Source of the DNA: TPA_inf: Saccharomyces
Taxonomy: Eukaryota
Assembly: GCA_000146045.2 (NCBI GenBank)
Contig: BK006941.2
Span: 384,001-448,000 of the forward strand
Length of the DNA stretch: 64,000 nt
Reading direction: 5' to 3'
The position numbers and the translations under genes are program-made. Positions within the stretch are counted from its first letter, which is position 1. The number at the start of each line of letters is the position of its first letter. The notes beneath the pieces were generated by a model. That model was not told where the DNA came from. It saw nothing but the letters and a program-made list of their open reading frames with translations, and searched no databases. Below, piece after piece: positions 1 to 52,401 of the stretch.

Positions 1-1
1 A

Positions 2-766
2 GAATTTATACTCATTGGTCCACCCCGGAGTTCTCTTTTGCATCGAAACGTGGGGGGATGCTACCGCGAAGACGGCTCGCAAGAGGTGTGGGATACGTTC
101 CTGGAACAGACGCGTGGGAGATTTAGCGGGGATGAGCTGTGCCGTTTGCAGGACACTGCACAGAAACTAAGCGAGAGCGATCCTTTGGTACAAGACTACG
201 TGGGGCTATTGAGCGGTACCCTTAGCGGCTACTGCTTGTCGCCCTCGAAGCTGGACGCGTTTGAGGCAGCCATGCAGGAGTACGTGGGAACGCATAATTT
301 TCACAACTTTACCACAGGAAAGCTTTGGGGGGATCCTAGTGCTCAGCGCCATATCAAAAAGGTTGTAGTGTCGCAGGCCTCACCGGGATGGATATGTGTG
401 CGGATCCACGGGCAGTCGTTTATGTTGCATCAGATTCGACGAATGGTAGCGCTTGCCGTACTTGCAGCCCGTTGCCAATTGCCGCCTAATATTGTACGTA
501 ACTATTTTAACGCCGGGCCTAGGAAATACATTCCGAGGGCGCCCGCACAAGGCCTATTATTAGAGGGACCTGTGTTTGACGGGTATAACACTAAGTTGCG
601 CAATTTGCTGTATTGCGAAATCCGCCCGGACGATATCACTCTTGAGCGCATGTGCCGTTTCCGAGAACGCCAGATCTGTACTGCGATCGCACACGAGGAG
701 ACACAGCGTCACGTGTTTTGCCATTTTGTACGACAAATGAACCGCCTGGCCACGCCTCTAATCTAG
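2..766 (+). CDS. PUS2: tRNA pseudouridine synthase (TruA/Pus1 family), C-terminal ~255 aa only; the 5' end lies before the window start
   Basis: The reading frame is open from the window edge to TAG at 764-766. It contains the GTHNFHNFT region typical of Pus1/TruA enzymes. It sits immediately upstream of PYC1, as YGL063W does on chrVII. Its GC content and codon usage are atypical for yeast (see findings). Confidence 0.7.
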   Translation, partial: EFILIGPPRSSLLHRNVGGCYREDGSQEVWDTFLEQTRGRFSGDELCRLQDTAQKLSESDPLVQDYVGLLSGTLSGYCLSPSKLDAFEAAMQEYVGTHNFHNFTTGKLWGDPSAQRHIKKVVVSQASPGWICVRIHGQSFMLHQIRRMVALAVLAARCQLPPNIVRNYFNAGPRKYIPRAPAQGLLLEGPVFDGYNTKLRNLLYCEIRPDDITLERMCRFRERQICTAIAHEETQRHVFCHFVRQMNRLATPLI

Positions 767-1195
767 CCGCCCAATGTCGCGGGTTGACCCGCGACATTGG
801 GCGGGCAATACTCTCATCTTATTGGCTATTCAACTTAGACAAGCGCCAGTTGCGCGCACAAATTTGGTCATGACCGCTCCACCGGCATGCGTGTCGTCAT
901 CCCGCATCATTCGGGACATTTTGGCCTTTTCCGCAGTGCGTAGTTGACGTGGGGAGAAAGCTAGTGGGCTGTCGCATATGGTTGGTTTTAGGTGGCGAAA
1001 GTTTCGCCGCGATAGCAATCATGTCCTCGACCTTAATCTCAATGGAATGGGTCATGCTCGGTAAGTGAGTCTCGCTGTATATAAGTATATATGTAATCGC
1101 CTAGTTCGATAGATACAAGGAGGTCTTGAGTATGTAGATAAACGAAAAGAAGATAACAAAAGGAAAATCTCAGCCTCTCCCCTTCCTCTTAGACA

Positions 1196-4100
1196 ATGTC
1201 GCAAAGAAAATTCGCCGGCTTGAGAGATAACTTCAATCTCTTGGGTGAAAAGAACAAAATATTGGTGGCTAATAGAGGAGAAATTCCAATCAGAATTTTT
1301 CGTACCGCTCATGAACTGTCTATGCAGACGGTAGCTATATATTCTCATGAAGATCGTCTTTCAACGCACAAACAAAAGGCTGACGAAGCATACGTCATAG
1401 GTGAAGTAGGCCAATATACCCCCGTCGGCGCTTATTTGGCCATTGACGAAATCATTTCCATTGCCCAAAAACACCAGGTAGATTTCATCCATCCAGGTTA
1501 TGGGTTCTTGTCTGAAAATTCGGAATTTGCCGACAAAGTAGTGAAGGCCGGTATCACTTGGATTGGCCCTCCAGCTGAAGTTATTGACTCCGTGGGTGAT
1601 AAGGTCTCAGCTAGAAACCTGGCAGCAAAAGCTAATGTGCCCACCGTTCCTGGTACACCAGGTCCTATAGAAACTGTAGAGGAAGCACTTGACTTCGTCA
1701 ATGAATACGGCTACCCGGTGATCATTAAGGCCGCCTTTGGTGGTGGTGGTAGAGGTATGAGAGTCGTTAGAGAAGGTGACGACGTGGCAGATGCCTTTCA
1801 ACGTGCTACCTCCGAAGCCCGTACTGCCTTCGGTAATGGTACCTGCTTTGTGGAAAGATTCTTGGACAAGCCAAAGCATATTGAAGTTCAATTGTTGGCC
1901 GATAACCACGGAAACGTGGTTCATCTTTTCGAAAGAGACTGTTCCGTGCAGAGAAGACACCAAAAGGTTGTCGAAGTGGCCCCAGCAAAGACTTTACCCC
2001 GTGAAGTCCGTGACGCCATTTTGACAGATGCAGTTAAATTGGCCAAAGAGTGTGGCTACAGAAATGCGGGTACTGCTGAATTCTTGGTTGATAACCAAAA
2101 TAGACACTATTTCATTGAAATTAATCCAAGAATCCAAGTGGAACATACCATCACAGAAGAAATTACCGGTATAGATATTGTGGCGGCTCAGATCCAAATT
2201 GCGGCAGGTGCCTCTCTACCCCAGCTGGGCCTATTCCAGGACAAAATTACGACTCGTGGCTTTGCCATTCAGTGCCGTATTACCACGGAAGACCCTGCTA
2301 AGAACTTCCAACCAGATACCGGTAGAATAGAAGTGTACCGTTCTGCAGGTGGTAATGGTGTTAGACTGGATGGTGGTAACGCCTATGCAGGAACAATAAT
2401 CTCACCTCATTACGACTCAATGCTGGTCAAATGCTCATGCTCCGGTTCCACCTACGAAATCGTTCGTAGAAAAATGATTCGTGCATTAATCGAGTTCAGA
2501 ATTAGAGGTGTCAAGACCAACATTCCCTTCCTATTGACTCTTTTGACCAATCCAGTATTTATTGAGGGTACATACTGGACGACTTTTATTGACGACACCC
2601 CACAACTGTTCCAAATGGTTTCATCACAAAACAGAGCCCAAAAACTTTTACATTACCTCGCCGACGTGGCAGTCAATGGTTCATCTATCAAGGGTCAAAT
2701 TGGCTTGCCAAAATTAAAATCAAATCCAAGTGTCCCCCATTTGCACGATGCTCAGGGCAATGTCATCAACGTTACAAAGTCTGCACCACCATCCGGATGG
2801 AGGCAAGTGCTACTAGAAAAGGGGCCAGCTGAATTTGCCAGACAAGTTAGACAGTTCAATGGTACTTTATTGATGGACACCACCTGGAGAGACGCTCATC
2901 AATCTCTACTTGCAACAAGAGTCAGAACCCACGATTTGGCTACAATCGCTCCAACAACCGCACATGCCCTTGCAGGTCGTTTCGCCTTAGAATGTTGGGG
3001 TGGTGCCACATTCGATGTTGCAATGAGATTTTTGCATGAGGATCCATGGGAACGTTTGAGAAAATTAAGATCTCTGGTGCCTAATATTCCATTCCAAATG
3101 TTATTGCGTGGTGCCAATGGTGTGGCTTATTCTTCATTGCCTGACAATGCTATTGACCATTTCGTCAAGCAAGCCAAGGATAATGGTGTTGATATATTTA
3201 GAGTCTTTGATGCCTTAAATGACTTGGAACAATTGAAGGTCGGTGTAGATGCTGTGAAGAAGGCAGGTGGTGTTGTAGAAGCCACTGTTTGTTTCTCTGG
3301 GGATATGCTTCAGCCAGGCAAGAAATACAATTTGGATTACTACTTGGAAATTGCTGAAAAAATTGTCCAAATGGGCACTCATATCCTGGGTATCAAAGAT
3401 ATGGCAGGTACCATGAAGCCAGCAGCTGCCAAACTACTGATTGGATCTTTGAGGGCTAAGTACCCTGATCTCCCAATACATGTTCACACTCACGATTCTG
3501 CAGGTACTGCTGTTGCATCAATGACTGCGTGTGCTCTGGCGGGCGCCGATGTCGTTGATGTTGCCATCAACTCAATGTCTGGTTTAACTTCACAACCATC
3601 AATCAATGCTCTGTTGGCTTCATTAGAAGGTAATATTGACACTGGTATTAACGTTGAGCATGTCCGTGAACTAGATGCATATTGGGCAGAGATGAGATTG
3701 TTATACTCTTGTTTCGAGGCTGACTTGAAGGGCCCAGATCCAGAAGTTTATCAACATGAAATCCCAGGTGGTCAATTGACAAACTTGTTGTTTCAAGCCC
3801 AACAATTGGGTCTTGGAGAACAATGGGCCGAAACAAAAAGAGCTTACAGAGAAGCCAATTATTTATTGGGTGATATTGTCAAAGTTACCCCAACTTCGAA
3901 GGTCGTTGGTGATCTGGCACAATTTATGGTCTCCAATAAATTAACTTCCGATGATGTGAGACGCCTGGCTAATTCTTTGGATTTCCCTGACTCTGTTATG
4001 GATTTCTTCGAAGGCTTAATCGGCCAACCATATGGTGGGTTCCCAGAACCATTTAGATCAGACGTTTTAAGGAACAAGAGAAGAAAGTTGACTTGTCGTC

Positions 4101-4732
4101 CAGGCCTGGAACTAGAGCCATTTGATCTCGAAAAAATTAGAGAAGACTTGCAGAATAGATTTGGTGATGTTGATGAGTGCGACGTTGCTTCTTATAACAT
4201 GTACCCAAGAGTTTATGAAGACTTCCAAAAGATGAGAGAAACGTATGGTGATTTATCTGTATTGCCAACAAGAAGCTTTTTGTCTCCACTAGAGACTGAC
4301 GAAGAAATTGAAGTTGTAATCGAACAAGGTAAAACGCTAATTATCAAGCTACAGGCTGTGGGTGATTTGAACAAAAAGACCGGTGAAAGAGAAGTTTACT
4401 TTGATTTGAATGGTGAAATGAGAAAAATTCGTGTTGCTGACAGATCACAAAAAGTGGAAACTGTTACTAAATCCAAAGCAGACATGCATGATCCATTACA
4501 CATTGGTGCACCAATGGCAGGTGTCATTGTTGAAGTTAAAGTTCATAAAGGATCACTAATAAAGAAGGGCCAACCTGTAGCCGTATTAAGCGCCATGAAA
4601 ATGGAAATGATTATATCTTCTCCATCCGATGGACAAGTTAAAGAAGTGTTTGTCTCTGATGGTGAAAATGTGGACTCTTCTGATTTATTAGTTCTATTAG
4701 AAGACCAAGTTCCTGTTGAAACTAAGGCATGA
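1196..4732 (+). CDS. PYC1: Pyruvate carboxylase, 1178 aa (ATP-grasp biotin carboxylase, carboxyltransferase and C-terminal biotinyl AMKM domain)
   Basis: Single ATG-to-stop ORF of 1178 aa with a biotin-attachment motif (SAMKME). It is flanked by PUS2 and DUO1, so it is PYC1 rather than PYC2. Confidence 0.95.
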   Translation: MSQRKFAGLRDNFNLLGEKNKILVANRGEIPIRIFRTAHELSMQTVAIYSHEDRLSTHKQKADEAYVIGEVGQYTPVGAYLAIDEIISIAQKHQVDFIHPGYGFLSENSEFADKVVKAGITWIGPPAEVIDSVGDKVSARNLAAKANVPTVPGTPGPIETVEEALDFVNEYGYPVIIKAAFGGGGRGMRVVREGDDVADAFQRATSEARTAFGNGTCFVERFLDKPKHIEVQLLADNHGNVVHLFERDCSVQRRHQKVVEVAPAKTLPREVRDAILTDAVKLAKECGYRNAGTAEFLVDNQNRHYFIEINPRIQVEHTITEEITGIDIVAAQIQIAAGASLPQLGLFQDKITTRGFAIQCRITTEDPAKNFQPDTGRIEVYRSAGGNGVRLDGGNAYAGTIISPHYDSMLVKCSCSGSTYEIVRRKMIRALIEFRIRGVKTNIPFLLTLLTNPVFIEGTYWTTFIDDTPQLFQMVSSQNRAQKLLHYLADVAVNGSSIKGQIGLPKLKSNPSVPHLHDAQGNVINVTKSAPPSGWRQVLLEKGPAEFARQVRQFNGTLLMDTTWRDAHQSLLATRVRTHDLATIAPTTAHALAGRFALECWGGATFDVAMRFLHEDPWERLRKLRSLVPNIPFQMLLRGANGVAYSSLPDNAIDHFVKQAKDNGVDIFRVFDALNDLEQLKVGVDAVKKAGGVVEATVCFSGDMLQPGKKYNLDYYLEIAEKIVQMGTHILGIKDMAGTMKPAAAKLLIGSLRAKYPDLPIHVHTHDSAGTAVASMTACALAGADVVDVAINSMSGLTSQPSINALLASLEGNIDTGINVEHVRELDAYWAEMRLLYSCFEADLKGPDPEVYQHEIPGGQLTNLLFQAQQLGLGEQWAETKRAYREANYLLGDIVKVTPTSKVVGDLAQFMVSNKLTSDDVRRLANSLDFPDSVMDFFEGLIGQPYGGFPEPFRSDVLRNKRRKLTCRPGLELEPFDLEKIREDLQNRFGDVDECDVASYNMYPRVYEDFQKMRETYGDLSVLPTRSFLSPLETDEEIEVVIEQGKTLIIKLQAVGDLNKKTGEREVYFDLNGEMRKIRVADRSQKVETVTKSKADMHDPLHIGAPMAGVIVEVKVHKGSLIKKGQPVAVLSAMKMEMIISSPSDGQVKEVFVSDGENVDSSDLLVLLEDQVPVETKA

Positions 4733-4967
4733 ACCGGTTAGTTCTCATTTATAATGTATAATATACCCGAATCTTATTTATTTACCTTTCCTATTTTTTG
4801 ACGACCAGTAAATACTAATACATAATTAGGAACAAAAGTTAAATAAAAAAAAAAATAATAATTTAACGCATCCAATTAACGTGTCCTTTTTTCATCATTA
4901 ATTTATCTACTATTTCGATTTAAATTCCATATACAATAAATCCTAGATACATTCCCGAAAGCATCTT

Positions 4968-5711
4968 TTAGCGAAACATCTTCCTTGAGCTGCTAGCAGT
5001 GGGCTTAGTCCACCTGTTAGTTACTCTTGGTATACCACTAGGTCTTTTCGAGGCAGGAACATGGGTCTTTCTTACTCTTCCGTTATTTGAAATTCCTGCC
5101 GAAGGAACGGGCCTTCTACCAGATTGCACACCGTACCTTGGATTTAAGCCTTGATTTGGTGGCTTTGCTGGTGCAGCATCCTTTTCACCCTTCCTATTTT
5201 CTAATTTTTGTCTCAAATCCAAGATCTCCTTCTTTTTCAACGCTATCACGTTGTGTAAAGTACTCCCATCTTCATCATTTGTGTTTACATTTTCATTGTG
5301 CAGTCTATCATTAATTAGCTTTAAATAGGTTTGATCGCTCATCAATTTATGAATATAACCAGCTTGAGAATGAATGTTGATCCATGAATCTAAAATGGAA
5401 TTCGTAGATTTACATACCTCATGTACTTGATTAACGTATACTGGCAAGTTATTTTTTAATGCGGCCGTAACATTTTTTATCATTGCTGTTATTTTATCTA
5501 ACGATTCTGATTCTTTGAGTAAGGATTGCGTTGTGATTGAATTAAACGATCTTATAGAATTGCTGTTAGCCGAAATATTATCGCTTGCTCCACCTCCTGT
5601 GCTTTTTGGAAATTTATTGGTCGTGTTATTGAGGTTAGATCTCATCTCATTGAAAATCTGTGGAATCAGTTTGTCTATAGTCGAATCATCTAATTGGCTT
5701 TGCTCACTCAT
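4968..5711 (-). CDS. DUO1: DASH/Dam1 complex subunit Duo1, 247 aa
   Basis: The ORF translation begins MSEQSQLDDSTIDKL at the internal ATG (reverse complement at 5709-5711). The track ORF starts 8 codons upstream. Length matches the expected 247 aa. Confidence 0.85.
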   Translation of the reverse strand: MSEQSQLDDSTIDKLIPQIFNEMRSNLNNTTNKFPKSTGGGASDNISANSNSIRSFNSITTQSLLKESESLDKITAMIKNVTAALKNNLPVYVNQVHEVCKSTNSILDSWINIHSQAGYIHKLMSDQTYLKLINDRLHNENVNTNDEDGSTLHNVIALKKKEILDLRQKLENRKGEKDAAPAKPPNQGLNPRYGVQSGRRPVPSAGISNNGRVRKTHVPASKRPSGIPRVTNRWTKPTASSSRKMFR

Positions 5712-49527: not shown

Positions 49528-51624
49528 CCCGGCCGCTACAGGTTTCCTGAGAAGCCATTATAATGGCAACTACATTCATCAACACTCCATAAAATCCTAT
49601 CGAGTTACACTGCTAGTGTCGCAATTGCGCTTTTCTGCTGCTTAATTGTGGGCCCCAAGCTCTTATCACTTGCTACCATCCTATAAACTGTATGGAATGC
49701 CATCACAACTTTCGGAAAAATAAAGCGCTTTTTTACGCTATCAGTGGAGATATTACGAATTAGGCACAGGGAAGAAATAGATAAAAAATTCATGGGGCCA
49801 ACCCCAGACGTCAATCTTCTACACGTCAAGTTTTGAAAAAAATTAAATAAAAAATAAAAAAAAAAACCGGCGCGAAGGAAACGTGCTGGCTCGCTAACTT
49901 CTAGTCTTACTGTACTGACTACCTTCCAGTCCTACTGGTTATACTGCATTGTACGGCAACTTACACACCCCACGCACTTACTTTCCTCCACAATGCCATC
50001 TAGAAAAATCGATTACCCGCTAATTTTCCGGGAAAAAGTCGATTAATGTAGGTTAGTGGCAGCTATGCTAAGCAATGATAAAGGAACCATACACGATATT
50101 TCTACAGAAGGCTATTAAATAGGGTGAAATAGGATGAAGCAACAATCAAAAATTATGAAAGCATCCGTTTTCTCGCTATTCTAATAATGGGACAGAACTG
50201 CCAATTCTTGATCTGGTGATCCATACGATTAAAATAGGGGTTCATCGCATGGAAAGTCTGTAAATCACACTTGCCTACCATAAGGAAGTCATCAATTCCC
50301 GAATTTTAAACGGGTTTCTATGAGTATTTGGAGGATGTTCATTCTTGGTAACATTACTGATGACATTCAGTGATACACTGCCTTCAAGGAAACACACGCG
50401 ATAGAGGCAAAACAATGTTGCAACGGCAATTAATTTCTGTCATTGTAATGAATTTCTGCTCGTTGCTTCTAACCATATCTTGTGTAACGCTTGCGTTGAT
50501 ATGCAAAAATAACGAGATGGAATTTGCTGCCCTCTTTCAGCCATATGATGGCGGCAAAAACTTTGAAATTTGTGCACAGGATATAATAAGCTACTTCTTG
50601 ACTCTAACGCCGTACTACAGTTTACAAAAAATGTATACAAACTCTTAGGATTGGTCAAGAAAAGTAAATGTTGTACTGCTCCAAAGATATTGCGATGCCG
50701 TGATAATTCAAAAGGGTCGACCCAGTCTATTTCACTCGCGCGATAATCGTTCGTTATCCGAAGCTGGCCAATTGATACAATTAATTGACATCAGCAGACA
50801 GCAAATGCACTTGATATACGCAGCTTAAAGCAAGGGTAAATTATCTGAAAAAGGATTGAATACAATCAAAACCTTCACATACATTGGTAGTAATATCGAG
50901 CATCGCTATTAGCAGAGTATCTCGAAGTCTACCACGGCGAAAGTTGATTTTTTATCTGAGGTGCTGATCTTCGGACGCAATGCGCAAACGTAATTCCGTA
51001 GTTTTCCCAATTATTTTATTTTTTAAATTACACGTACCAGGTAGATCACATACATATACCCAACACCTGTTATATAGTGAATTGAATTATTCGGAACATC
51101 AATAATCCTTTGCTTATAATTCTTGTTATCATCCATCTTGCATCTTTATTTAATTATATTTTGCACAATAAGCTATCTATGTGAGCTGCGTACGGTGACT
51201 CCAAACAATCTGTTAATTTCCATATAAATAACTTGTAGTCGGATCGTACAATGGCTCTATATAGGTTTGGACCGGTATGTAACCTAATATGGCTGACTCA
51301 AAACCTGCTAGATAGTTATCCAAGTGAATTTGAGTCTCGTATCCTTTATCACATTTTTACAATAGTGGCTAGCTATCTTTTTCATGTTAGGCTCACCCGG
51401 TATTCTCATGCAAGATCAAACAAAAAATGGTAAAGTTTTGGACTTTACATTGCTTACAGTTGCTTTTTTATGAAGATTCAAAAGATTATGTCCTCGGCGG
51501 CTAAATTTTCCATTAATAATATTATCCTTTTACGCGACCGAAAAAGAGAAGCGTTTTAAGAGTTGTTTCTAACAAATATTAATAATAAAGCTAACGTGAA
51601 CTGACCAGGCTCTATTTGAAAGAT

Positions 51625-52401
51625 ATGGCACCGAAAAAGAAATCAAACGATAGAGCCATTCAGGCAAAAGGCTCAGAAGGTTAAGTATTTTTTTACATGC
51701 TCATCAAATACCGCCATTACTAACAATTGTACCCCGGGTATTTTATCAGCTGAACAATTAATAGAAGATTACTTGGTGTCACAATATAAACCATTTTCTG
51801 TAAATGATATAGTTCAGAATTTGCACAATAAAGTGACAAAAACAACAGCAACCAAAGCATTAGAAAATCTCGTTAACGAGAAACGCATAGTGTCTAAAAC
51901 CTTCGGAAAGATTATAATTTACTCTTGTAATGAACAAGATACAGCATTACCAAGCAATATTGATCCTTCTCAGTTTGATTTTGAAACTGTATTGCAACTG
52001 AGAAATGATTTAATAGAACTAGAGAGAGATAAATCAACGGCCAAAGACGCTCTTGACTCTGTAACTAAAGAACCTGAAAATGAAGATCTCCTAACAATCA
52101 TTGAAAACGAAGAAAACGAGTTGAAAAAGATTGAATCAAAATTACAAAGTCTACAGGATGATTGGGATCCAGCAAATGATGAGATTGTCAAGCGGATAAT
52201 GTCTGAAGATACGCTGCTACAAAAAGAAATCACGAAGAGATCAAAGATTTGCAAAAACCTAATTGCTACAATAAAGGACTCAGTGTGCCCGAAAAATATG
52301 AATGAATTTTTGGTATGTATTTTGAACATTTTTCGAGACCTTTTCTTTTGAATATACTAACGAAATCTTTACAGGAAGAAATTGGATTTGAGGACATTTG
52401 A
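51625..52401 (+). CDS. HOP2: Meiotic homologous-pairing protein Hop2 (TBPIP family), three exons: 51625-51679, 51750-52312, 52375-52401
   Basis: Exon 1 ATGGCACCGAAAAAGAAATCAAACGATAGAGCCATTCAGGCAAAAGGCTCAGAAG is followed by GTTAAGT, branch TACTAAC at 51718-51724 and a 3' CAG at 51747-51749. Intron 2 has GTATGT at 52313, TACTAAC at 52355-52361 and a 3' CAG at 52372-52374. The phases are consistent and give about 214 aa ending EEIGFEDI. Confidence 0.75.
51680..51749 (+). other. HOP2 intron 1 (70 nt) with a rare GUUAAGU 5' splice site
   Basis: Splice signals are listed under the HOP2 entry. Confidence 0.7.
52313..52374 (+). other. HOP2 intron 2 (62 nt), canonical GUAUGU...UACUAAC...CAG
   Basis: Splice signals are listed under the HOP2 entry. 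Without splicing the frame runs into a stop after ...NEFLVCILNIFRDLFF. Confidence 0.75.

Follow-up and report, generated by a model that had tools for sequence, protein, structure and literature searches.

Why is the 3’ part of PUS2 so much richer in GC than the DNA around it, and why is its stop codon directly followed by a palindrome? Positions 2–763 of the window, by which we mean the whole 64-kb stretch of DNA analyzed, encode the final 254 codons of a pseudouridine synthase of the TruA family (Pfam PF01416) whose translation matches S. cerevisiae Pus2 (YGL063W) with 100% identity, and the stop codon TAG occupies 764–766. This PUS2 part (1–766, + strand) is the GC- and CpG-rich coding portion of an island: its GC content is 0.527 and that of the adjoining non-coding DNA at 767–1050 is 0.535, compared to 0.384 for the remaining window, and the GC-richest 1-kb stretch of the entire 64 kb starts at position 1. 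The CpG observed/expected ratio amounts to 1.11–1.18 in the GC-rich region versus 0.80. The original prediction from the sequence had rightly called the PUS2 part GC-rich, although its estimate of 55–60% exceeds the measured 53%. The composition switch it placed near 1050 agrees with our profile, in which GC falls from 0.53 to 0.42 across about 1000–1100 and stays at 0.36–0.42 from about 1078 on.

The enrichment extends beyond synonymous sites. GC is raised at every codon position of the PUS2 part (GC1.58, GC2.43, GC3.575) and in the adjoining non-coding DNA (.535 at 767–1050), while GC3 of the other 29 long ORFs of the window lies at only 0.30–0.45. Among the arginine codons of 2–763 we counted CGC 7, CGT 6, CGA 5, CGG 2, AGA 1 and AGG 2, i.e. 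20 CGN versus 3 AGR, and the numbers given beforehand were nearly exact.

An island of this kind is present at the syntenic PUS2 in 7/7 Saccharomyces species, with GC/GC3 values of.53/.58 in S. cerevisiae (3’ part),.52/.60 in S. paradoxus-like contigs,.52/.57 in S. mikatae,.56/.67 in S. kudriavzevii,.57/.69 in S. arboricola,.63/.82 in S. uvarum and.60/.74 in S. eubayanus, compared to a GC3 of only.34–.41 for the neighbor ALG2. It is strongest in the last two species (GC3 0.74–0.82), where it widens to a dome of about 6 kb that includes the 5’ half of PYC1: GC3 is.52–.73 in MRH4,.75–.95 in PUS2 and.55–.72 in the 5’ half of PYC1, from which it drops to.33–.48 in the 3’ half. The DEAD-box gene upstream of PUS2 was first labeled DBP3; from its position and length we take it to be MRH4 (YGL064C). 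The peak thus occupies the same place in related species and declines over kilobases to either side, most clearly in S. uvarum and S. eubayanus, and the MRH4–PUS2 intergenic region is AT-rich. An exact look-up with the PYC1 protein returned no match and PUS2 homologs were used in its place. The PUS2 genes of two Kazachstania species are without a GC island: in K. africana GC3 is.43 with CGN 5 versus AGR 13, and in K. naganishii the gene is no outlier relative to its neighbors. The Gly/Ala/Arg/Pro fraction of Pus2 is.27–.32 in Saccharomyces versus.17–.23 in Kazachstania and Candida. The GC island is a vertically inherited local peak common to the genus, whose origin falls between the divergence from Kazachstania and the radiation of Saccharomyces.

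This history bears on introgression or horizontal acquisition of the segment, one of three explanations offered in the original prediction, for which the donor would have been GC-rich. Codon usage and composition are indeed atypical for S. cerevisiae, and the composition changes downstream within about 100 nt. However, all seven species carry the island at the syntenic site, with orthologs at least as GC-rich (GC 0.52–0.63, GC3 0.57–0.82), and nucleotide identity of PUS2 to S. cerevisiae declines in the order of the species tree (0.89, 0.84, 0.82, 0.78, 0.75 and 0.74), which is the outcome named beforehand as arguing against introgression. The order ALG2-MRH4-PUS2-PYC1 is preserved among Saccharomyces species, its upstream part ALG2-MRH4-PUS2 is shared with Kazachstania, and the best non-Saccharomyces match among 5.8 billion proteins reaches 43% identity. 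Kazachstania Pus2 proteins are mutually 37% identical, as distant from each other as from the Saccharomyces proteins. Judged from these alignments, introgression into S. cerevisiae is effectively refuted and we consider it extremely improbable; the accompanying view of a native location with a compositional anomaly and no insertion was correct.

[quoted passage not shown] PUS2 is short and weakly constrained and lies between two promoter-containing intergenic regions, the kind of region in which yeast meiotic breaks fall. A drive from AT to GC is expected to produce CGN arginine codons, high GC3 and a shift towards Gly, Ala, Arg and Pro jointly; the CGN codons follow because turning AGR into CGR exchanges AT for GC without altering the amino acid. 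GC3 peaks that are conserved among Saccharomyces species and amplified in S. bayanus have been attributed to gBGC, and for PUS2 the accompanying regression, y = 1.592x - 0.163, yields a predicted value of 0.72 (Lynch et al. 2010, PMC2997560). How average GC3 varies among S. cerevisiae genes is fitted by a published model with conversion tracts around intergenic breaks (Marsolier-Kergoat 2011, PMC3020949). Nothing usable on a hotspot at PUS2 or PYC1 emerged from a literature search.

Polarized substitutions indicate that the drive may have weakened in some lineages. GC-to-AT versus AT-to-GC changes in PUS2 number 43:12 in S. cerevisiae compared to 165:164 in the neighboring genes (Fisher p = 1e-4) and 38:8 in S. 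mikatae, counts in which GC-to-AT can come out inflated since parsimony polarization was done against GC-rich outgroups; S. uvarum alone leans in the opposite direction (6:11). The excess of AT-to-GC fixations that would signal active gBGC was not found in PUS2 of S. cerevisiae or S. mikatae, and at conserved arginine positions of S. cerevisiae PUS2 we observed CGC changing to CGT or CGA and CGG to CGA. The GC island is now eroding in the S. cerevisiae lineage, a substitution bias compatible with a past but not a present GC drive. We propose that the drive has since weakened in the lineages of S. cerevisiae, S. paradoxus and S. mikatae, where the island would decay toward AT.

Against gBGC it can be held that present-day substitutions in S. 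cerevisiae run contrary to active conversion, that the S. uvarum dome is broad with a non-monotonic decay from the intergenic regions, and that the MRH4–PUS2 intergenic region is itself AT-rich. The latter, together with the coincidence of the island’s coding part with the PUS2 ORF, would fit a cause other than conversion, either a local mutational bias linked to the context of replication or transcription, or selection favoring GC-rich DNA, which might for instance position nucleosomes between the two promoters; the poor fit of recent substitutions to active gBGC is already noted in the literature (PMC2997560). We regard such a cause as unlikely. The effect spans three codon positions, amino acid composition and, in S. 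uvarum and S. eubayanus, the flanking genes, as expected of a regional neutral drive rather than of selection on a single gene, and a fixed local mutation bias would not let some lineages lose GC while others gain it.

The second feature of the locus is the inverted repeat at 767–804. The original prediction of a perfect 38-nt palindrome was correct as to position, but the repeat is not strictly a perfect palindrome and is built as 18+2+18, not 17+4+17: a left arm of 18 nt (767–784, CCGCCCAATGTCGCGGGT) and a right arm of 18 nt (787–804, ACCCGCGACATTGGGCGG), 100% complementary, enclose the 2-nt center TG at 785–786, giving a hairpin loop TTGA at 784–787. It is the sole perfect inverted repeat with arms of at least 14 nt in the 64-kb window. 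Since 60 random resamples of 64 kb gave longest perfect arms of only 8–13 nt, a chance origin of the 18-nt arms is excluded. Folded into a hairpin, the repeat is predicted to reach -38.2 kcal/mol in RNA form (z = -7.9) and -25.2 kcal/mol in DNA form (z = -8.9). The fragility ascribed to the palindrome is not supported, as fragility in yeast is associated with palindromes of roughly 100 bp or more, far above 38 nt. Readthrough of the PUS2 stop codon was dismissed, since the next in-frame stop (TGA at 785–787 in the allele of the window) lies 6 codons on and allows no meaningful extension.

The palindrome is found in five species, namely S. cerevisiae, the S. paradoxus-like contigs, S. mikatae, S. 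kudriavzevii (imperfect) and S. arboricola, with 66% of its columns invariant. It had been argued beforehand that absence from other species would speak against a function; by that standard its retention argues against an accident. The outer right arm is missing in S. uvarum and S. eubayanus, which retain 15 of the first 17 nt of the left arm, which points to a constraint on sequence and not on pairing. The 39-nt difference to these two species is equally compatible with gain and with loss of the right arm. A metagenome scan with an invariant 15-mer returned chance bacterial matches, and the sole yeast contig (L049) ends inside the palindrome.

The center of the palindrome has flipped repeatedly, between strains and between species. 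Strains L001 and L004 of S. cerevisiae carry TCAA, the reverse complement of TTGA (CA instead of TG at the center), an observation that rests on two long-read assemblies in which a polishing artefact is possible; both strains have one nearby SNP in common, so that a single origin followed by recombination may be involved. Comparing S. paradoxus-like L136 with S. mikatae, the center matches at 5/12 positions directly and at 11/12 when flipped, and for S. kudriavzevii versus S. arboricola the corresponding values are 4/12 and 10/12. The arms show a single concerted change of two adjacent pairs (ATG/CAT versus ACT/AGT), a mirroring that is not significant versus shuffles and to which S. kudriavzevii, with its mismatched arms, is a counter-example. 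Loop inversions and multi-base compensatory changes are described as signatures of template switching (Monttinen & Loytynoja 2022, PMC8794818). Intrastrand template switching during replication would flip the center and copy one arm onto the other, and a constraint on the half-site sequence would further keep the arms alike.

Alternatively, the palindrome could act as an RNA hairpin in the PUS2 3’ UTR, starting at 767, with a role in termination, mRNA stability or localization of the mRNA of a mitochondrial enzyme, and its arms kept complementary by selection for base pairing. The prediction for S. cerevisiae is highly stable (-38.2 kcal/mol, z = -7.9), hairpins are also predicted in S. paradoxus (-32.4), S. 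mikatae (-36.3) and S. arboricola (-34.1), and the two-pair change is compensatory. Inspection by eye revealed no AT-rich poly(A)-type signal from 805 to about 1075, which makes it probable that the hairpin is part of the PUS2 transcript. On the other hand, 11/17 pairs never vary and the covariation is not significant, with 121–389 of 500 shuffles equaling the observed measures. S. kudriavzevii has 3 mismatches (-23.8 kcal/mol), and S. uvarum and S. eubayanus are without the hairpin yet retain the left-arm sequence. Wobble pairs were rejected as evidence for the RNA strand: the G:T pairs of S. mikatae turn into the A:C mismatches of the flipped S. paradoxus center, so that this equivalence leaves no strand-specific signal. 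The loop reads UUGA on the + strand or UCAA on the - strand and in the flipped allele, not AGNN, which dismisses a cleavage hairpin with the AGNN tetraloop recognized by Rnt1. An Rfam scan of 1–1300 gave only chance-level matches, none better than E = 0.6. The RNA hairpin suggested originally as a structural element is supported neither by covariation nor by Rfam, and we consider an RNA function improbable.

Gene order suggests another origin. PUS2 is followed by RSM23-CEG1-SNT2 in Kazachstania versus PYC1 in Saccharomyces, which places the palindrome at an inter-genus rearrangement junction. It might be a functionless repair scar of the inversion by which PUS2 and PYC1 became neighbors in the ancestor of Saccharomyces, sealed by fold-back synthesis in which the PUS2 flank had its last ~17 nt copied in inverted orientation. 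The GC island and the palindrome are both Saccharomyces-specific. Short templated inverted duplications of about 5–34 bp arise by fold-back at repaired yeast double-strand breaks (PMC11724301). A neutral scar should decay, yet 66% of the palindrome columns are invariant in five species, and the perfect URS1 match of the left arm described below would remain an unexplained coincidence. Furthermore, the breakpoint is not placeable to the nucleotide, and the polarity of the inversion presumes ohnolog pairs that we take as given. A scar devoid of function appears quite unlikely.

We favor a reading in which the palindrome is a conserved, regulatory-looking element. A putative URS1-type (Ume6) site spans the PUS2 stop codon at 764–773 on the - strand, reading TAGCCGCCCA on the + strand and TGGGCGGCTA on the - strand. 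TAGCCGCCCA, composed of the stop codon and the first palindrome bases, is invariant in 7/7 Saccharomyces species, and TGGGCGGCTA shows 10/10 identity to the URS1H sites of DMC1, MEI4, SPO16 and REC114 (Table 6, PMC1698483). The GGCGGC core of URS1 lies at 766–771 with flanks as in proven sites, and the sole other TAGCCGCC in the 64-kb window is located upstream of HOP2. The match is 423–432 nt upstream of the PYC1 ATG, and PYC1 is listed, at gene level, among the direct targets of Ume6 (PMC7869214). We infer that Ume6 may occupy this site. The right arm of S. cerevisiae is without the GGCGGC core, and two URS1 sites occur only in S. mikatae, S. kudriavzevii and S. arboricola. Accordingly, the regulatory region of PYC1 would have its far-upstream end in the palindrome, whose left end forms the URS1 site together with the stop codon and whose right arm represents an inverted copy of that flank.

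The remaining GC-rich region upstream of PYC1 (805–1075, + strand) contains phylogenetic footprints that include 866–934 and 991–1008 (GGTGGCGAAAGTTTCGCC); in the seven-species alignment, 77% of the positions of block 871–935 are invariant in 5 species and 58% in 7. A likely PYC1 TATA box (TATATAAG, 1078–1085, + strand) is invariant in 7 species and marks the end of the GC island. PYC1 itself (YGL062W) follows as an ORF at 1196–4732 (+ strand) with the Pfam architecture of its orthologs. Candidate sites for Reb1 (TTACCCG), Adr1 (TTGGRG), a Ppr1-type CGG-N6-CCG, CCAAT/HAP and an MSE at 855–863, for which we assumed the consensuses, were discarded as mismatched or unconserved across species. A literature search for a dissection of the PYC1 promoter yielded nothing usable.

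Taken together, GC-rich PUS2 and the palindrome behind its stop codon are both real and both instances of known processes. We give slightly better than even chances to the joint explanation of an inherited GC peak caused by gBGC and a palindrome forming the URS1-bearing far-upstream end of the PYC1 region. A bolder proposal, to which we assign a low probability, regards the palindrome as a naturally active nuclear ‘flip-flop’ site, a hairpin born at the PUS2–PYC1 inversion junction that carries a Ume6 site and whose center is still inverting by template switching, at a frequency sufficient for polymorphism in S. cerevisiae. If true, the locus would be tractable for studying template-switch rates and their genetic control at a native site, and might regulate in an orientation-dependent manner between the termination of PUS2 and the promoter of PYC1. 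The region also illustrates in compact form how non-adaptive compositional drive may reshape a weakly constrained gene, altering codon usage and even amino acid content, and then fade. PUS2 looks foreign but is not, which calls for caution when horizontal transfer is screened for by composition. The rarer item is the inverted repeat, which is nuclear and conserved, has undergone several center flips and is still polymorphic; if confirmed, it would allow template-switch mutation to be assayed at a native locus of yeast. The locus also flags a candidate Ume6 site overlapping a stop codon.

Compared to published GC3 peaks of Saccharomyces, the PUS2 peak likewise lies at one place in all species and is tallest in the S. 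bayanus group, with a lower value in S. cerevisiae roughly as given by the regression and GC not replenished recently. Unlike the published profiles, which are 15-gene moving averages, it is one gene wide in S. cerevisiae; it also alters protein composition, and its link to a hotspot is presumed. The site at 764–773 shares with early meiotic URS1/Ume6 sites the identical 10-mer, a position upstream of a reported Ume6 target and genus-wide conservation. It differs from them in that the gene about 430 nt downstream is a metabolic one, that it overlaps the preceding stop codon and that it is embedded in a 38-nt palindrome, with binding presumed. The palindrome has the inverted-repeat geometry and predicted hairpin extrusion of the fragile, break-inducing long palindromes of yeast, but comprises only 38 nt and is stably inherited in the five species carrying it. 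It resembles template-switch hairpins (Loytynoja & Goldman 2017, PMC5453318; PMC8794818), including classical quasi-palindrome correction, in its perfect stem and its loop inverted between related lineages with stems retained, to which the one multi-base change mirrored in the arms may be added. In contrast to the template-switch hairpins of RNA genes, it is a nuclear intergenic or 3’-UTR site of yeast, and its flip is polymorphic within one species, a pattern from which template switching is the probable mechanism.

At its 5' end the window holds the 3' part of PUS2 (YGL063W), where positions 2–763 code for the last 254 residues of a pseudouridine synthase of the TruA family (Pfam PF01416), a product 100% identical to S. 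cerevisiae Pus2. The stop codon TAG lies at 764–766 and the PYC1 ORF starts at 1196. The original prediction had described PUS2 and its 3' flank as an island of elevated GC content, which holds, although the level is 0.53 and not 0.55–0.60. GC3 reaches 0.575 in the PUS2 part compared to 0.30–0.45 in the 29 further long ORFs that the window contains, and the observed/expected ratio of CpG is 1.11–1.18 in the island versus 0.80 elsewhere. A recount of the Arg codons in 2–763 (CGC 7, CGT 6, CGA 5, CGG 2, AGA 1, AGG 2) bore out the proposed bias towards CGN. At position 239 the window strain carries T (TCG, Ser), whereas all six other S. cerevisiae strains carry C (CCG, Pro), a private, nonsynonymous GC-to-AT change at a CpG. 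The opposite extreme is found 4 kb from the island, in an AT-rich trough (GC 0.27–0.28) at 4700–5000 between PYC1 and DUO1. Upstream of the window, automatic models in telomere-to-telomere S. cerevisiae assemblies (L001–L006, 4001–5357) give a spliced Pus2 of 424 aa as opposed to the 370-aa ORF; a PUS2 5'-UTR intron has been confirmed by PCR (PMC4607428) and PUS2 upstream ORFs are translated (bioRxiv 10.64898/2026.03.05.709866).

We compared orthologous loci of six S. cerevisiae strains, two S. paradoxus-like contigs, S. mikatae, S. kudriavzevii, S. arboricola, S. uvarum and S. eubayanus. The order ALG2-MRH4-PUS2-PYC1 is retained in all these loci wherever the contigs extend far enough to show it. 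Each species has a GC-rich PUS2 (GC 0.52–0.63, GC3 0.57–0.82) with CGN:AGR ratios from 23:6 to 26:7, while GC3 of ALG2 is only 0.34–0.41 in the same species. In the syntenic PUS2 of Kazachstania africana these values are ordinary (GC3 0.43, 5 CGN versus 13 AGR), and PUS2 of K. naganishii is not GC-richer than its adjacent genes. The island thus arose after the split from Kazachstania and before the Saccharomyces radiation; it is ancestral to the genus Saccharomyces and not an import. This agrees with its earlier characterization as anomalous in composition but native in location. Introgression, offered as one explanation at the time, was rejected: orthologs are GC-rich as well and nucleotide identity to S. 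cerevisiae drops in species-tree order (0.89, 0.84, 0.82, 0.78, 0.75, 0.74), the very outcome named beforehand as counter-evidence. A search of 5.8 billion proteins yielded no candidate donor, the top match outside Saccharomyces having 43% identity. Pus2 proteins of the two Kazachstania species are 37% identical to each other, as distant as from Saccharomyces Pus2.

The long inverted repeat proposed directly after the PUS2 stop codon is present, with perfect 18-nt arms at 767–784 and 787–804 and a centre of 2 nt. Random resampling of 64 kb, repeated 60 times, gave longest perfect arms of 8–13 nt. Predicted hairpin energies are -38.2 kcal/mol for RNA and -25.2 kcal/mol for DNA (z about -8 to -9). 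Long perfect palindromes had been called fragile in yeast, an argument not applicable at 38 nt. It is found in five Saccharomyces species: perfect arms measure 14–15 nt in both paradoxus-like contigs (RNA hairpin -32.4 kcal/mol, L007 only), 14 nt plus G:T pairs in S. mikatae (-36.3 kcal/mol) and 15 nt in S. arboricola (-34.1 kcal/mol), and the arms of S. kudriavzevii contain three mismatches (-23.8 kcal/mol). In S. uvarum and S. eubayanus the left arm is retained (15 of its 17 leading nt), as is an inner stem of 6 bp, whereas the outer right arm is missing, a length difference of 39 nt that is not polarisable as gain or loss. A metagenome-derived S. cerevisiae contig (L049, 12–26) stops inside the palindrome after ...GTCGCGGGT, suggesting that assemblers break at the repeat.

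A function as RNA hairpin is unsupported: 11 of 17 pairs never vary and only two change on both sides, shuffled controls score as well for covariation as the real alignment, an Rfam search of 1–1300 gave no match, and the loop is not of the Rnt1-type AGNN. Since the left arm is conserved where its partner is missing, we read the constraint as acting on sequence, i.e. protein binding, and not on pairing. The stop codon together with the first seven left-arm bases forms TAGCCGCCCA, base-for-base the DMC1 URS1H site, and its reverse complement TGGGCGGCTA matches the MEI4, SPO16 and REC114 sites (PMC1698483, Table 6). This URS1-type (Ume6-type) sequence shows no variation in seven species. Its 8-mer core has only one further copy in the 64-kb window, the canonical URS1 TCGGCGGCTAAAT at 51494–51506, about 120 nt upstream of the start codon (51626) of meiosis-specific HOP2; this copy can be regarded as an internal positive control. 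HOP2 contains an intron, and its second-exon ORF (51773–52351) matches the Pfam TBPIP/Hop2 domain. PYC1 is listed as a direct Ume6 target (PMC7869214). The most fitting description of the palindrome is a conserved element, far upstream of PYC1, that contains a URS1-type site and also behaves as a probable template-switching hairpin.

The centre of the palindrome flips. Within the species the indication comes from long-read assemblies: of the six from S. cerevisiae, L001 and L004 read TCAA and the other four, like the window, TTGA, so that the two forms are precise reverse complements located precisely at the centre. As L001 and L004 lie on different flanking haplotypes and have only one other SNP in common, 1.2 kb away, the centre has either flipped more than once or been transferred on a conversion tract that spans PUS2. 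L004 follows the L002 haplotype over 9 kb with two exceptions, position 4175 and the centre of the palindrome, where it matches L001; a past conversion event over PUS2 with a tract of 1.2 kb or more could have left this pattern (L002 positions 4175–5377, six-strain alignment). Between species the flip is unmistakable: over the central 12 nt the paradoxus-like contig L136 matches S. mikatae at 5/12 positions directly and at 11/12 when flipped, S. kudriavzevii matches S. arboricola at 4/12 and 10/12, respectively. At least two or three independent inversions are needed on the species tree. The three bases at the middle of each arm also vary in step: the cerevisiae-paradoxus-mikatae group has ATG/CAT, S. 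arboricola has ACT/AGT, and S. kudriavzevii shows a mismatched intermediate. Inverted loops and mirrored multi-base changes are hallmarks of template switching (PMC8794818), from which we infer fold-back of the DNA during replication; such fold-back may contribute to the lasting similarity of the two arms.

The genes next to PUS2 are RSM23-CEG1-SNT2 in the two Kazachstania species (L013 4001–8320, L015 4001–8087) but PYC1 in Saccharomyces (window 1–4732). One inversion of about 66 genes (YGL128C-YGL063W), with one breakpoint immediately downstream of PUS2, would account for the difference. Judging by the ohnolog pairs AFT1/AFT2, ITC1/YPL216W and PCL10/PCL8, the Kazachstania order looks ancestral; if so, the PUS2-PYC1 junction is derived in Saccharomyces and of about the same age as the island and the palindrome. 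The palindrome, sitting at a junction that would then be a derived feature, could have originated there as a fold-back repair scar, and PMC11724301 describes short templated inverted duplications of this kind at yeast breaks. We consider this origin improbable, however, as it leaves the URS1 identity unexplained and a neutral scar would be expected to have decayed.

Invariant columns in five species make up 51% of the whole PUS2-PYC1 intergenic region, 66% of the palindrome and 77% of block 871–935, so that phylogenetic footprints lie densely packed over 767–1075, upstream of PYC1. GC content is similar in invariant (0.50) and variable (0.47) intergenic columns; constraint alone therefore does not account for the GC-rich intergenic DNA. 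A block at 866–934 is nearly invariant in seven species and includes the 10-bp palindrome GGTCATGACC (866–875) and an everted CCG-N7-CGG (902–914), presumably PYC1 regulatory sites. At 991–1008 the 7+7 palindrome GGTGGCGAAAGTTTCGCC is invariant in five species; its counterpart in S. uvarum and S. eubayanus, GGTGGCAAAAATTTCGCC, contains the Rpn4 PACE consensus GGTGGCAAA.

In S. uvarum and S. eubayanus GC3 forms a dome about 6 kb wide, with 0.52–0.73 in MRH4, 0.75–0.95 in PUS2, 0.55–0.72 in the 5' half of PYC1 and 0.33–0.48 in its 3' half. The compositional drive affected the Pus2 protein too, not codons alone: Gly, Ala, Arg and Pro make up 0.27–0.32 of Saccharomyces Pus2 versus 0.17–0.23 in Kazachstania and Candida, and the Arg/Lys ratio is inverted. 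Constraint on PUS2 is weaker than on its neighbours (dN/dS 0.12–0.15 versus 0.01–0.10). According to parsimony-polarised substitutions, decay of the island is under way in the S. cerevisiae clade, with 43 GC-to-AT versus 12 AT-to-GC changes in S. cerevisiae PUS2 and 38 versus 8 in S. mikatae, in contrast to 165:164 in ALG2, MRH4 and PYC1 pooled (Fisher p = 1e-4). Conserved Arg codons in S. cerevisiae PUS2 have changed from CGC to CGT or CGA and from CGG to CGA. A preference for CGN is what an AT-to-GC drive yields, since replacing AGR by CGR is synonymous and itself an AT-to-GC change; in today's mixture of CGT and CGA we see the eroded leftover of that drive.

GC-biased gene conversion (gBGC) was the best of the three explanations proposed originally, as a past and now decaying drive and not a present-day one. 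GC3 peaks have been ascribed to gBGC at hot spots conserved among Saccharomyces species, as are the peak positions, and recent substitutions were already noted as not fitting active gBGC (Lynch et al., PMC2997560). In the same study GC3 of S. bayanus is systematically above that of S. cerevisiae, most strongly at peaks, and median GC3s in S. cerevisiae is 36% with the richest genes near 67%. From an S. cerevisiae GC3 of 0.554 its regression predicts 0.72 in S. bayanus; we observed 0.74–0.82 for PUS2 in S. uvarum and S. eubayanus. Marsolier-Kergoat (PMC3020949) modelled GC3 from conversion tracts decaying with distance from intergenic breaks, which fits S. cerevisiae genes and would suit the 1.1-kb PUS2 between two promoter-containing intergenic regions. 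We infer that a recombination hotspot caused the PUS2 peak. Compared to the published GC3 peaks, PUS2 represents a sharp, single-gene case of a known phenomenon.
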